Shown here: in pieces, positions 48,404 to 49,526 of the stretch
Numbering within the stretch: the first letter of the stretch is position 1
Layout: each line of letters starts with the position of its first letter
Sequence record: NZ_CP094683.1
From: a plasmid
Direction: 5' to 3' (one strand)
DNA length: 52,093 nucleotides
Position numbers and translations under genes: made by a program
The notes under the pieces: generated by a model
Database searches by the model: none
Told to the model about the DNA's origin: nothing
The model's input: the letters and a program-made list of their open reading frames with translations, nothing else

Positions 48404-48501
48404 AAAGCCGCAGGGCCGGTGATCGGAGGCCGGCCGCCCGCAGGGGCGGTTCCCGGGCCAAAGATGGCGGTTCAATCGTGCCCCCAAAAGGGGGTGTGCG
48501 C

Positions 48502-48573
48502 ATGGAGTACTTAATCATGCTGGTAGTAATCCTGTTGGTTCTGGATTCCATTTTTCGCAATAAAAAACGATGA
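48502..48573 (+). CDS. 23-aa hydrophobic peptide MEYLIMLVVILLVLDSIFRNKKR. Candidate type I toxin, copy 1.
   Basis: ATG is preceded by the GGGGG SD inside a ccccc-aaaa-ggggg hairpin. The stop overlaps a bidirectional terminator (aacgatgaccg / cggtcatcgtt). Three paralogous copies lie nearby. Confidence 0.45.
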   Translation: MEYLIMLVVILLVLDSIFRNKKR

Positions 48574-48654
48574 CCGCCCCATCCCCTAGCAAAGGATAAC
48601 GGTCATCGTTTTCTCTTTAAACGGGGGCGAACCGTCTGCCGGCAGCGCCTCTTT
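48556..48654 (-). ncRNA. Candidate antisense sRNA (antitoxin), copy 1. Convergent to the peptide ORF and sharing its terminator.
   Basis: Minus-strand promoter TTGACG (48684-48689), 17-bp spacer, TACAAT (48661-48666) with TGc extension. Transcript 5' region AAAGAGGCGCUGCCGGCAGACGGUUCGCCCCC is conserved in all four copies. It ends at the hairpin plus U-run. Confidence 0.35.
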
Positions 48655-48715
48655 ATGTATATTGTAGCACGCGCCGCCGCCGCCGTCAAGCATAGGGAAA
48701 AGATTGACAGATTGA

Positions 48716-48744
48716 TTGACAGAAAATGTCGAATATTGTATCAT
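48716..48744 (+). promoter_or_regulatory. Promoter of peptide copy 2: TTGACA, 17-bp spacer, TATCAT. A duplicated TTGACAG lies just upstream.
   Basis: Read directly. Followed by a ~120-nt GC-rich structured leader. Confidence 0.45.
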
Positions 48745-48869
48745 GAATACGGCGCTGCCACAGACGGCACGCCGGGCCGCGGCCCGGTGATCGGAGGCCA
48801 ACCGCCCGCAGGGGCGGTTCTTGGGCCAAAGATGGCGGTTCAATCGTGCCCCCAAAAGGGGGTGTGCGT

Positions 48870-48941
48870 ATGGAGTACTTAATCGTATTGGTAATTTTGC
48901 TAATCGTGGTAGACTCCGTCCTGCACAATAAAAAACGATAA
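48870..48941 (+). CDS. 23-aa hydrophobic peptide MEYLIVLVILLIVVDSVLHNKKR. Candidate type I toxin, copy 2.
   Basis: Same leader, SD hairpin and terminator arrangement as copy 1. Confidence 0.45.
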   Translation: MEYLIVLVILLIVVDSVLHNKKR

Positions 48942-49018
48942 CCGCCCCACCCTGAGAAAGTGAACGGTTATCGTTAGTACTTAGCAGGGGGCGAACCGTC
49001 TGCCGGCAACGCCTCTTT
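48924..49018 (-). ncRNA. Candidate antisense sRNA, copy 2.
   Basis: Minus-strand promoter TTGACG (49048-49053), 17-bp spacer, TACAAT (49025-49030). Conserved 5' domain. Terminator aacgataaccg / cggttatcgtt with a U-run on the minus side. Confidence 0.35.
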
Positions 49019-49067
49019 ATATATATTGTAGCACGCGTCATCGCCGTCGTCAAGCATAGGGAAAAGA

Positions 49068-49096
49068 TTGACAGAAAATGTCGAATATTGTATCAT
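49068..49096 (+). promoter_or_regulatory. Promoter of peptide copy 3: TTGACA, 17-bp spacer, TATCAT.
   Basis: Near-identical to the copy-2 promoter. Confidence 0.45.
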
Positions 49097-49160
49097 GAAT
49101 ACGGCGTTGCCACAGGCGGCAGGCGGTTAAGCCCCTCCCTTGAGAGAGGGGGTGTTATGT

Positions 49161-49232
49161 ATGGTGGAATTGTTGCTTGCGATTTTATTAGTCGTGGCGA
49201 TTACAGAAGCCGTAAAATACATAAAAAAGTAA
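49161..49232 (+). CDS. 23-aa hydrophobic peptide MVELLLAILLVVAITEAVKYIKK. Candidate type I toxin, copy 3 (diverged).
   Basis: SD GAGAGGGGG. Followed by terminator gtaaccgc / gcggttac with T-runs on both sides. Confidence 0.4.
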   Translation: MVELLLAILLVVAITEAVKYIKK

Positions 49233-49306
49233 CCGCCCTCACAACCAAATGAAGCGGTTACTTTTCCACTGAATTTGGGCGAACCGTCTGCCGACAGCGC
49301 CTCTTT
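49221..49306 (-). ncRNA. Candidate antisense sRNA, copy 3.
   Basis: Minus-strand consensus promoter TTGACA (49336-49341), 17-bp spacer, TATAAT (49313-49318). Conserved 5' domain AAAGAGGCGCUGUCGGCAGACGGUUCGCCC. Confidence 0.35.
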
Positions 49307-49526
49307 AAAATAATTATAGTATACGCCGCCGCGGCTGTCAAGCGTGGCGGTTATATATTTTTAAATAGGTAGCGCACAGGATTGCAGCAAAATACTACAA
49401 AATGTAAAAACAGATGGTGTTATGACAAAATGTTCTTAAAGTATTAAAAGTTTATTCATAAAAAATGAGGAAATAAGGGGCAATAGGTTGGAAAACAGGC
49501 TTTGAAGTGTTAATTATGAAGAAAAA

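Follow-up and report, generated by a model that had tools for sequence, protein, structure and literature searches.

Predicted type I toxin-antitoxin modules of the bsrG/SR4 and txpA/RatA kind in a tandem and inverted array on an Anaerotruncus plasmid

Introduction

[quoted passage not shown] In both, an antitoxin in convergent orientation covers the 3′ end of its toxin mRNA, whose 5′ end pairs with a 3′ stretch in a long helix (P1) around the ORF and the hairpin of the Shine-Dalgarno (SD) sequence. This SD is kept sequestered, and the antitoxin terminator hairpin is complementary to a stem-loop that contains the stop codon. Because the antitoxin can also pair with the 3′ strand of P1, the 5′ strand must be released when it binds. 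Both are located on mobile elements, and the separate downstream mRNA terminator of bsrG has a counterpart here (T2) in copies 3 and 4 but not in copies 1 and 2. There are differences as well: the antitoxin here is approximately 90 nt instead of 183 nt, lacks the non-complementary SL1 and does not overlap the mRNA terminator, while the toxins have 23 aa instead of 38 and are unseen by PF16935. Further, the SD helix is already long here and modeling predicts no SR4-like extension, and the copies are arrayed on a plasmid, three in tandem and one inverted.

The txpA/RatA system of the B. subtilis skin element and EF3263 of Enterococcus faecalis (Fozo et al. 2010, PMC2887945) likewise combine a hydrophobic toxin carrying a C-terminal lysine cluster with an antisense RNA, about 100–220 nt long, across the 3′ end. 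For txpA/RatA, mRNA stability is controlled through RNase III (Fozo et al. 2010, PMC2887945). The Pfam family of these toxins is also that of relatives found in the present analysis. In contrast, TxpA has 59 aa and no demonstrated sequence similarity to the peptides described here, and the scaffold motif of the present modules (GGCGCUGCC...GGCAGACGGUU) is not described for those loci. In gut Clostridia, a 2019 review recorded TxpA-like toxins only for Clostridium bolteae (PMC6563280).

Other systems are alike in part. In the Gram-negative hok/sok and aapA1/IsoA1 systems, the toxin mRNA is similarly closed 5′ to 3′ with an occluded SD, but their antitoxins act on the 5′ region of an mRNA processed at its 3′ end. 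Here the antitoxin is directed to the 3′ strand of the clamp itself, and the systems are not homologous. Fst/RNAII (par of pAD1) has convergent transcripts, a bidirectional terminator and a role in plasmid maintenance, which for the present array would be an expectation. In par, however, direct repeats make the RNA 5′ ends complementary and RNAII blocks translation initiation, while the two 5′ domains here have the same sense, being an inverted repeat in the DNA. Finally, the Ibs/Sib loci of Escherichia coli encode very short hydrophobic toxins (18–19 aa) in tandem repeated loci, as here, but Sib spans the whole ibs ORF, the host is Gram-negative and there is no sequence kinship.

The locus described here probably comprises four type I modules of the bsrG/SR4 and txpA/RatA kind, predicted from sequence, three in tandem and one inverted. 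They are without annotation and are unusually short kin of these B. subtilis systems. As relatives of known systems they are a useful find and not a surprising one.

Results

The array and its plasmid setting

The window, that is, the whole stretch of 52,093 nucleotides analyzed (NZ_CP094683.1), is a circular plasmid of roughly 52 kb from an Anaerotruncus gut bacterium, and two independent metagenome contigs join its ends into a circle. The array starts 10 nt past the stop codon of a primase-helicase gene whose full-length homologues are Rep genes of small plasmids, which bears out an earlier, sequence-only reading that had placed it directly 3′ of such a gene. ParA and iteron-like repeats accompany this plasmid-type Rep near the array. 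The region contains an 89-nt repeat family in three copies, a 172-nt family in two, and nine promoter-like sites versus 2.4 ± 1.6 for shuffled sequence. A blastn comparison of the 942-nt region to PLSDB plasmids and INPHARED phages gave zero matches.

The sequence-only reading had described three modules. Their features are present where it placed them, including 23-codon ORFs at 48502-48573, 48870-48941 and 49161-49232, but the count was too low, as a fourth module lies inverted at 50856-51213. Modules 2 and 3 have the following predicted features, where S5 is the mRNA 5′ domain and R1 the covariance model used to score antisense RNAs.

Module 2
48716-48744, plus strand: toxin promoter, TTGACA-17-TATCAT, 11/12 consensus positions
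48751-48773, plus strand: mRNA 5′ domain S5, GGCGCTGCCACAGACGGCACGCC; RNAduplex with the tail −40.9 kcal/mol
48849-48862, plus strand: SD-sequestering hairpin, CCCCC-AAAA-GGGGG; SD P(unpaired) 0.001–0.004 in 3 modeled states
48870-48941, plus strand: toxin ORF, 23 aa, MEYLIVLVILLIVVDSVLHNKKR
48930-49018, minus strand: antisense (antitoxin) RNA; R1 85.7 bits; fold z = −3.0
49025-49053, minus strand: antitoxin promoter, TTGACG-17-TACAAT with TG before it

Module 3
49068-49096, plus strand: toxin promoter, TTGACA-17-TATCAT, 11/12 consensus positions
49103-49135, plus strand: mRNA 5′ domain S5, GGCGTTGCC-loop-GGCAGGCGGTTAAGCCCC; RNAduplex −41.3 kcal/mol
49132-49152, plus strand: SD-sequestering hairpin, CCCCTCCC-TTGAGA-GAGGGGG; SD P(unpaired) 0.014–0.023
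49161-49232, plus strand: toxin ORF, 23 aa, MVELLLAILLVVAITEAVKYIKK
49221-49306, minus strand: antisense (antitoxin) RNA; R1 78.5 bits; fold z = −4.9
49313-49341, minus strand: antitoxin promoter, TTGACA-17-TATAAT, 12/12 consensus positions
49325-49362, plus strand: T2, intrinsic terminator past the tail

The plus-strand promoters of copies 2 and 3 and the minus-strand promoters with 17-bp spacing (48689-48661, 49053-49025 and 49341-49313) thus agree with what had been read from the letters. The leader of about 120 nt ending in a ccccc-aaaa-ggggg hairpin, which had been ascribed to both copies, fits less evenly: the hairpin is that of copy 2, while copy 3 has a leader of approximately 57 nt and the different hairpin CCCCTCCC...GAGGGGG.

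In module 2, S5 is nearly identical to the antisense 5′ domain and is therefore complementary to the plus-strand tail (48987-49018), and in the minimum-free-energy fold the mRNA is closed by the resulting 5′–3′ helix. The antisense RNA of this module has its terminator hairpin at 48934-48975 and a 5′ domain that is the complement of the tail. In module 3, S5 pairs with the tail at 49277-49306 and supplies the 5′ side of the long helix P1; the antisense terminator hairpin lies at 49225-49265. The loop of T2 in this module contains the antitoxin −35 box, and the module 3 toxin mRNA is likely to end at T2.

Module 1 is a truncated copy.

Module 1
48413-48501, plus strand: truncated toxin leader, without promoter and without S5
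48481-48494, plus strand: SD hairpin, CCCCC-AAAA-GGGGG
48502-48573, plus strand: toxin ORF, 23 aa, MEYLIMLVVILLVLDSIFRNKKR
48562-48654, minus strand: antisense (antitoxin) RNA; R1 85.4 bits; fold −41.7 kcal/mol, z = −4.3
48661-48689, minus strand: antitoxin promoter, TTGACG-17-TACAAT with TG before it; position kept across homologues

The antisense RNA of module 1 consists, in order, of a 5′ hairpin domain (AS5), a spacer, the terminator hairpin and a U6 tail. The terminator covers the final 4 toxin codons and the stop, with arms at 48559-48576 and 48600-48617 (inverted repeat I1). That copy 1 has no toxin promoter had been implied before, correctly; MAFFT alignment with the relatives L020, L001 and L022 now gives the cause, a deletion of approximately 125 nt that took the promoter and the mRNA 5′ domain. 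L022 has lost the copy 1 toxin promoter by a separate, independent deletion, and the antitoxin is intact in both. Transcription of the module 1 toxin could come only via read-through from the primase-helicase gene. Close relatives retain a terminator between rep and module 1, which is partly deleted in the window, so that Rep transcription would enter module 1 here. As copy 1 is decaying and the copies number four, not three, the earlier argument that triplication implies selection is weakened.

Module 4 is complete and lies in the opposite orientation.

Module 4
50856-51213, minus strand: complete module
51185-51213, minus strand: toxin promoter, TTGACA-17-TACAAT
51156-51178, minus strand: S5
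51067-51080, minus strand: SD hairpin
50988-51059, minus strand: toxin ORF, 23 aa, MEYLIVLVILLIVVDSVLHNKKR
50911-50999, plus strand: antisense (antitoxin) RNA; R1 70.1 bits, E = 3.6e-20; fold z = −4.4
50875-50904, plus strand: antitoxin promoter, TTGACA-18-TAGAAT
50856-50889, minus strand: T2 terminator of the toxin mRNA, CAGGCTGTTT-GTC-AAGCAGCCTG and U-run

The module 4 peptide is identical to that of module 2, the two ORFs differing by 4 synonymous changes, and L020 holds an identical copy of the module 4 ORF. The T2 of this module is found too in the equivalent copies of L020 and L027.

The antisense RNA, terminators and promoters across relatives

The antisense RNA of approximately 90 nt, a 5′ hairpin plus terminator, was found as 82 distinct sequences in 60 searched sources: the window itself, a single Anaerotruncus genome, contigs from metagenomes and approximately 45 phage contigs. 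Chance pattern matches inside coding DNA (metagenome L002 and L005) were discarded, and most of the 32 loci returned by a looser viral pattern were chance matches. The fold z-scores of the four window copies range from −3.0 to −4.9. Across the antisense alignment 97.5% of cells are paired, with compensatory changes at 11 of 18 pairs and two-sided changes in 122 cells versus 37 ± 8 in shuffles, a value reached by 0/500 shuffles. Covariation of the antisense structure, which had been proposed as a check, is thus present, and the antisense 5′ domain described as common to three copies is found where it had been placed.

Both promoters are kept in position in nearly all homologous units, the exceptions being one antisense and one sense unit in which no promoter was recognizable at that position. 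Of the two, it is mostly the antitoxin promoter that lies nearer to consensus. The hairpin at the stop codon (T1) has its U-tract on the minus strand and is therefore primarily the terminator of the antitoxin; the sequence-only reading had described it simply as a hairpin terminator across the stop codon. The toxin mRNA apparently runs past T1. T2 follows copies 3 and 4, with equivalents after terminal copies in four peptide classes, and is absent after copies 1 and 2 and likewise in two peptide classes. Decay affects the toxin side, a pattern typical of toxins: the antitoxin was spared in the two independent promoter deletions of copy 1, and the A. colihominis locus contains orphan antitoxin units.

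Selection on the peptides and their family relationships

The ORFs encode hydrophobic peptides of 23 codons with a basic C-terminus. In the window peptide class, 12 columns are variable, of which 10 are synonymous changes at codon position 3 and 2 are conservative. All 4 variable sites of the module 1 ORF are synonymous third positions (4 distinct DNA versions), and the module 2 subtype has 6 synonymous versus 2 conservative changes. Over all classes, the synonymous to non-synonymous ratio is 49:41 in the ORF frame compared to 19:71 and 9:81 in the other frames (p = 2e-9). In addition, one relative has an in-frame codon deletion within the ORF, and the SD and start codon are kept in every peptide class. 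The substitution pattern indicates that the ORFs are under purifying selection at the protein level.

That such modules escape annotation, as had been anticipated, is borne out by an exact look-up of ten peptide versions in a collection of 15 billion proteins, where none was present. The window peptides gave no match to Pfam (E ≤ 10), the Fst family included, or to NCBIfam, and hhalign provided no link to Hol_Tox-like relatives. They do not reach the PF16935 gathering score of 23.3 bits. By eye MEYLIVLVVLLIVLDSVLH looks like MEVLTFCLVVIGFLDLVIK, and since Pfam, NCBIfam and hhalign found nothing, this resemblance is a lead only. The hydrophobic stretch of the peptides is 15–17 residues long, which is short for a membrane-spanning helix.

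Many relatives on the same scaffold do pass PF16935 (Hol_Tox), with 24.5–44.5 bits at the cut-off of 23.3, and BsrG and TxpA themselves match this family. The Rfam BsrG model RF01412 scores 19.7 bits (E = 0.051) on copy 3 (49121-49239) and 35.4, 31.9 and 28.3 bits on related modules (E = 7e-5, 6.5e-4 and 6e-3), all below its gathering score of 55 bits. Judged by these comparisons, the scaffold is homologous to modules encoding Hol_Tox (TxpA/BsrG) toxins.

The 5′–3′ helix, SD occlusion and antisense pairing

The SD G-run lies inside a hairpin with P(unpaired) of about 0.02 or less in every modeled state, which agrees with the buried SD of the sequence-only reading and with the folding check proposed for it. 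In constrained folding, blocking the antitoxin region makes no difference to the occlusion of the SD. An SR4-like lengthening of the SD helix upon antitoxin binding was considered and rejected, as SD accessibility was unchanged. With the SD occluded either way, the modeling offers no route to translation activation and gives no ground for an SR4-like translational effect.

The helix between S5 and the tail has RNAduplex energies of −40 to −55 kcal/mol (26 units). Across 51 distinct units, 94.3% of its cells are paired, versus 27–52% when the partner is slid, and there are nine compensatory pairs, with two-sided changes in 69 cells versus 22.9 ± 7.8 (0/500 shuffles). Both covariation alignments are made up of units other than copies 2 and 4. 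An earlier test with 16 units had given mostly one-sided (wobble) changes, and covariation became convincing once phage contigs were added. G.U wobbles are frequent in the helix, one of them occurring in 43/51 units, and their abundance places it on the sense strand. This strand asymmetry holds in 18/18 units of five peptide classes. In the class to which copies 2 and 4 belong it is absent or reversed (8 units), so the case for the helix is stronger in copy 3. For the class of copy 3 the alignments demonstrate the 5′–3′ helix; for copies 2 and 4 it is only predicted by folding.

Pairing in trans between the antisense C-run and the SD G-run, as had been suggested, is no better than in shuffled controls: 97–138 of 200 shuffles pair as well or better in 3 of the 4 copies, and 17 of 200 in copy 4. 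The C-run is instead explained by the 5′–3′ helix of the mRNA. The antisense and mRNA 5′ domains are not complementary to each other because they have the same sense. Membership in the Fst/RNAII family was rejected on the sense of these domains, the SD pairing and the lack of a match to the Fst Pfam family. Of the family assignment originally made, the TxpA/RatA type of organization is retained, in line with selection, covariation and Hol_Tox relatives, while the likeness to Fst/RNAII and Ibs is dropped; the peptides are a misfit for an Ibs/Fst class, Ibs being unrelated in sequence. The type I reading with TxpA/RatA organization is supported, in that it survives all computational tests available.

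Discussion

Proposed working of a module and alternative readings

The features can be assembled into a working model. A moderate promoter would drive a highly structured toxin mRNA whose SD is locked in the C-run/G-run hairpin. With the stop codon within T1, the transcript would go on for approximately 30 nt into the tail, which pairs with S5 and closes the mRNA by a long 5′–3′ helix; terminal copies would end at T2. A stronger, convergent promoter would give the antisense RNA of approximately 90 nt, with a 5′ hairpin domain exactly complementary to the tail and a terminator that is the reverse of T1. The antitoxin probably meets the mRNA loop-to-loop at T1 and would then zip up over approximately 90 bp, pushing S5 out of the 5′–3′ helix. 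Such a duplex would be an RNase III substrate, so that the toxin mRNA would be destroyed ahead of translation. This decay would follow from the perfect duplex of about 90 bp and by analogy to txpA/RatA and bsrG/SR4 (PMC3834814; PMC6563280). In plasmid-free cells the antitoxin supply would be gone and residual mRNA could be translated, leading to arrest or killing through membrane damage. That the modules are transcribed and toxic, depend on RNase III and serve plasmid addiction, and how the half-lives of the RNAs compare, is inferred from these sequences.

The peptides might instead be small proteins of the membrane that are non-toxic or act only under certain conditions, for example lysis modulators resembling holins or antiholins, an inhibitor of competence like ComI or membrane stress peptides, with the antisense RNA tuning expression and not serving as an antidote. 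One homologous module class does lie directly 5′ of an amidase/endolysin gene (L009, L012 and L029), where the preceding frame is holin-like by eye only; the Pfam family is named "holin-like toxin", and one relative has a match to NCBIfam ComI that falls short of the cut-off (E = 4e-4). Fozo et al. 2010 (PMC2887945) further note that certain members of these families lack toxicity in some hosts. The window modules, however, are located beside a plasmid Rep gene and not in a lysis cassette, and the characterized relatives TxpA and BsrG are toxic in B. subtilis (PMC3834814). Repeated loss of the toxin promoter with the antitoxin kept, together with orphan antitoxins, fits a harmful product, and a non-toxic role is considered unlikely.

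Far less probable is that the units are non-coding repeats, either a structured RNA or a small mobile element within inverted repeats, whose ORFs are incidental. S5 and the antisense 5′ domain do form a DNA inverted repeat of about 25–30 bp, which bounds a cassette of 200–280 bp found in many genomes at variable copy number, and the ORFs are shorter than gene-caller limits. This reading was rejected because the synonymous excess is confined to the ORF frame, the SD and start codon are conserved in every class and many relatives' peptides pass Hol_Tox; both promoters, moreover, are conserved and lie outside the inverted repeats, and neither target-site duplications nor transposase genes were seen. 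The least probable reading of all, that the minus-strand RNAs control plasmid copy number or replication in connection with the primase-helicase gene, could appeal to the 10-nt distance and to Rep transcription entering module 1, but was rejected since these RNAs lie 3′ of rep and overlap neither it nor its leader, a terminator separates the two in close relatives and such modules are also found in prophages and chromosomes where rep is absent.

Wider meaning

With the modules read as type I systems, the txpA/bsrG family, which has been studied almost only in Bacillus and Enterococcus, now reaches gut Clostridia. No current view of type I systems is overturned by the find. The bsrG design, with a 5′–3′ clamp, an occluded SD and an antitoxin on the 3′ strand of the clamp, is kept with covariation on this plasmid and its A. 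colihominis counterpart, and likewise in several metagenome contigs and dozens of contigs from phages.

The antitoxin 5′ domain is almost identical in plasmid, prophage and chromosomal modules. Antitoxins, those of orphan units and of copies with a promoter-less toxin included, could for this reason cross-neutralize the toxins of rival elements. A more speculative proposal, which is rather unlikely, is that of a portable RNA "chassis" with repeatedly swapped toxin ORFs and cross-neutralizing antitoxins, in which arrays are anti-addiction or exclusion devices. Here the chassis would be the near-invariant S5, the antisense 5′ domain and the ACCGCC/GGCGGT core of T1, and it would have carried at least six unrelated peptide classes, with toxins of 20–23 aa that would be shorter than any described in Gram-positive bacteria. 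If true, arrays would work between plasmids and phages and would not simply maintain the element that carries them.

On the practical side, the predicted maintenance modules on an Anaerotruncus plasmid are possible vector parts for gut anaerobes that are hard to engineer. The analysis also flags toxins of 20–23 aa that both gene callers and Pfam miss, and it leaves a ready covariance model with 80-plus sequences for an Rfam or T1TAdb entry.

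The module array on the plasmid

The array consists of tandem modules, each made up of a putative 23-codon toxin ORF and a predicted convergent antisense RNA of ~90 nt, the antitoxin. When positions 47900–49700 were read and the ORFs listed, the three peptides matched the transcription of the sequence-only reading exactly, and a consensus scan located promoters on both strands.

Toxin ORFs (ORF listing) and promoters (consensus scan) of the tandem array
48502–48573, plus strand: module 1 toxin ORF, 23 codons, MEYLIMLVVILLVLDSIFRNKKR
48870–48941, plus strand: module 2 toxin ORF, 23 codons, MEYLIVLVILLIVVDSVLHNKKR
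49161–49232, plus strand: module 3 toxin ORF, 23 codons, MVELLLAILLVVAITEAVKYIKK
48716–48744, plus strand: toxin promoter, TTGACA-17-TATCAT
49068–49096, plus strand: toxin promoter, TTGACA-17-TATCAT
48689–48661, minus strand: antitoxin promoter, TTGACG-17-TACAAT, TG in front
49053–49025, minus strand: antitoxin promoter, TTGACG-17-TACAAT, TG in front
49341–49313, minus strand: antitoxin promoter, TTGACA-17-TATAAT

The scan gave 9 promoter-like sites in 1.4 kb versus 2.4 ± 1.6 in shuffles, and a repeat finder returned an 89-nt family in three copies, which is the antisense 5′ domain with its promoter, and a 172-nt repeat comprising leader and ORF. As ORFs, promoter sites and repeat families were all recovered, the original description of the array is accurate and does not reflect a chance pattern. 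The three tandem modules stand, but the copy count does not: R1, an antisense-RNA covariance model built here, found a fourth module, complete but inverted, at 50856–51213 on the minus strand (70.1 bits), outside the 48404–49340 region first described. The inverted modules bracket the gene for a 413-residue secreted protein at 49535–50776, an arrangement shared with Anaerotruncus colihominis (locus L001). Module 4 is itself flanked by two genes for signal-peptide proteins without Pfam domains, at 49535–50776 (plus) and about 51580–52093 (minus); the former varies between the window and A. colihominis (83–90% DNA identity).

Judged by their substitution pattern, the 23-codon ORFs are coding. 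In the MEY-type class to which the window's peptides belong, eight distinct DNA versions have 12 variable nucleotide columns, 10 of which are synonymous third positions and two conservative (V/I, L/V); a single-codon, in-frame deletion occurs in one relative. When all classes are taken together, the ORF frame has 49 synonymous and 41 non-synonymous variable columns; the corresponding ratios for the two other frames are 19:71 and 9:81 (binomial p = 2e-9 against 0.25). Modules 2 and 4 encode the same peptide from DNA that differs by four synonymous changes. Ten peptide versions, including longer GTG- and TTG-started forms, had no match (0/10) in a collection of 15 billion proteins, so standard annotation misses these toxin ORFs, as had been anticipated.

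Relatives and their common architecture

Similar DNA was absent from PLSDB plasmids and INPHARED phages. Exact-pattern scans on the conserved antisense 5′ domain located a syntenic locus in A. colihominis JM4-15 (L001), 25 genuine metagenome loci and one IMG/VR contig. A scan for the motif at the toxin-mRNA 5′ end, filtered by R1, added ~60 phage or prophage contigs, and re-searching 60 sources gave 83 matches representing 82 distinct antisense RNAs.

All relatives share one architecture, with the sense promoter first and the convergent, opposite-strand promoter last. The 5′ domain of the toxin mRNA (S5) reads GGCGYUGCC-loop-GGCAGGCGGUU.GCCCC and is followed by one or two C-run/G-run hairpins ending in the Shine-Dalgarno sequence (SD), and then by the small ORF. 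The stop codon lies inside or adjoins a hairpin (T1) whose core, ACCGCC...GGCGGU, is invariant, and a 3′ tail reads GGGGC.AACCGUCUGCCGGCAGCGCC. Both promoters are conserved in position in nearly all units, a recognisable one being missing from one antisense and one sense unit, and the antisense promoter is mostly nearer to consensus. Elsewhere, modules occupy chromosomal sites and phage contigs, where they adjoin XRE-type repressors or lie directly upstream of an endolysin gene. The class encoding VWWKLFRFTVCTACLLYILTIYAK lies directly upstream of an amidase/endolysin gene in three loci (L009, about 8690–8940; L012; the IMG/VR contig L029), and the end of the preceding reading frame appears holin-like by eye; this placement may link the "holin-like toxin" family with phage lysis cassettes.

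In the A. colihominis array, which has at least eight modules, MEY-type toxins occur alongside a 28-residue, TxpA/BsrG-like (Hol_Tox-like) toxin under identical promoters. Antitoxin-only units without a toxin ORF are also present there, as are partial antisense units arranged as a tandem pair (L001 2555–2690 and 4260–4410). Compared at window positions 48404–48420 with L001 and the metagenome contig L020, copy 1 is without ~125 nt that both of these keep; the lost stretch takes in the toxin promoter and S5, along with the 3′ half of the terminator of Rep. Locus L022 has a different, independent deletion of the same module 1 promoter and S5. Both deletions, in different strains, spare the antitoxin.

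A predicted 5′–3′ clamp in the toxin mRNA

The sequence of S5 almost equals the antisense 5′ domain, and is therefore complementary to the tail on the plus strand. When the read-through transcript was folded, an S5–tail helix closed every unit (−40 to −55 kcal/mol by RNAduplex). Covariation supports this clamp among 51 distinct units (neither covariation alignment includes copies 2 and 4, and in the peptide class that they represent the 3′ half of S5 differs and the strand asymmetry described below is reversed). Here, 94.3% of cells are paired versus 27–52% with the partners slid, and nine pairs show compensatory changes: one is C-G in 24 units, U-A in 20 and U.G in 4, and another A-U in 21, G-C in 17 and G.U in 6. 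Double-sided cells number 69 versus 22.9 ± 7.8 in shuffles (0/500).

Where S5 departs from the antisense domain, plus-strand pairing nearly always shows a G.U or U.G wobble (43 of the 51 units have one particular G.U), at sites that would read as A.C mismatches on the minus strand. Accordingly, stability favours the duplex on the plus strand in 18/18 units from five peptide classes. The helix is thus a feature of the sense transcript, which, on this predicted pairing, must extend past T1. A second plus-strand terminator (T2), whose loop holds the antitoxin −35 box, comes after terminal copies in four classes (window copies 3 and 4 are among these copies) and is absent after internal copies. 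In all modules, pairing is also possible between the S5 heptamer GGCGGUU and an invariant AACCGCC in the 5′ arm of T1, which corresponds to the outer helix in Rfam's BsrG model. The mRNA 5′ domain could thus pair on its 3′ side with either T1 or the tail, alternatives that may act as an antitermination-like switch permitting read-through of T1.

The SD had been proposed to be buried in the leader hairpin, and modelling agrees, with P(unpaired) ≤ 0.02 in the free, antitoxin-blocked and short mRNA forms. As the SD is occluded in all three, no claim is made for an antitoxin effect on translation. The proposed pairing between the antisense C-run and the SD did not exceed that of shuffled sequences in three of the four copies; the C-run is explained by its place in the S5–tail clamp.

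The putative antitoxin RNA

For each of the four antisense RNAs in the window, folding gives a hairpin at the 5′ end and, ahead of U6, a long terminator hairpin (−34 to −42 kcal/mol; z = −3.0 to −4.9). RNAalifold identified seven compensatory pairs in 30 sequences. Among 82 sequences, 97.5% of cells are paired, 11 of 18 pairs show double-sided changes, and double-sided cells number 122 versus 37 ± 8 in shuffles (0/500). The stop-codon hairpin was originally assigned to the toxin. Its U-run lies on the minus strand, making it primarily the antitoxin terminator; on the toxin side it would be a weak, bidirectional terminator at best. Non-cognate antisense/mRNA pairs within the window keep 50–70% of the cognate duplex energy in modelling, so cross-regulation between modules is possible.

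Relation to bsrG/SR4 and txpA/RatA

Type I systems of the bsrG/txpA family are well known in Bacillus. TxpA-like toxins, with a tendency to tandem duplication, were already reported in Clostridiales (Fozo et al. 2010, PMC2887945), and a 2019 review of Clostridia has C. bolteae as its sole entry for them and gives B. subtilis toxins a range of 28–60 residues (PMC6563280). What is new is the conserved RNA chassis backed by covariation, its spread among phage contigs, the predicted toxins of 20–23 residues and the array on the present plasmid.

Likeness to Fst/RNAII, suggested earlier, does not hold, because the 5′ domains of the two RNAs share one sense rather than being complementary to each other. 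Instead, the probed structure of bsrG mRNA has the layout predicted for the window modules. There, nt 1–35 pair with nt 232–262 (helix P1), the SD is inside a stem and the stop codon inside SL3. [quoted passage not shown]

Peptides of relatives on the same scaffold (e.g., MSTYETLTLMIAFAILIVSILRAKRK, MSVFETISLMIAFGMLIIAIIRKKK, MVTYSDLFQFCLVVISIIGLVIQITKKK) score 24.5–44.5 bits on Pfam PF16935 (Hol_Tox; cut-off 23.3 bits), and BsrG and TxpA themselves reach 34.5 and 31.3 bits. The window peptides fall outside PF16935 by every test applied, and short MEY/MDY peptides on this scaffold in phage contigs (MEYGLIILVLIFATGYIIAIKKK, MDYGWVILVLILATGYIIAIKK, MEYITLVLIIVLYTIIAIKK) are equally unrecognised. 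The Rfam BsrG model gave 35.4 (E = 7e-5), 31.9 and 28.3 bits for related modules and 19.7 bits (E = 0.051) for window copy 3, none of which reaches the model's gathering score of 55. The Hol_Tox matches of scaffold relatives and the bsrG layout argue that the window modules are compact relatives of bsrG/SR4 and txpA/RatA, and they are likely type I toxin–antitoxin modules of this kind. By analogy with both systems, the antitoxin would pair over ~90 nt of the toxin mRNA and displace S5, and the duplex would undergo RNase III decay.

Plasmid context

The neighbouring primase-helicase (zinc-ribbon, Toprim and DnaB_C domains) was correctly described as plasmid-type: its full-length homologues, at 30–41% identity, are the Rep genes on small plasmids from Lactobacillus and Streptococcus thermophilus. 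Upstream of it are ParA and four iteron-like repeats. The region upstream of ParA has three to four tandem 22-nt repeats resembling GGTGGTCGGTTTYGGTTTG and four dispersed copies of AAAGGTACYCAGTTTCGGNTAGTG (43761–43850, 43983–44755), which are candidate iterons or a candidate plasmid centromere. A 152-residue ORF adjoining ParA (44792–45250) has no Pfam match and may encode a ParB/ParG-type adaptor.

The window's end joins its start without a gap in two independent metagenome contigs (L027 3329/3330; L020 853/854), with 99.9% identity across the junction side (positions 1 and 52093), so the window is apparently a complete circular replicon (~52 kb). In A. colihominis, the homologous contig measures 56.7 kb. 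A putative maintenance role through post-segregational killing is a natural inference for the modules. Other plasmid genes encode an RNase J-like protein (15212–16873, plus; metallo-beta-lactamase, Beta-CASP and RMMBL domains), a 1707-residue alpha-2-macroglobulin-like protein (2857–7980), adenine deaminase, a MATE transporter, RmuC, an ABC-F protein and tRNA-Gly(CCC) (1548–1621).
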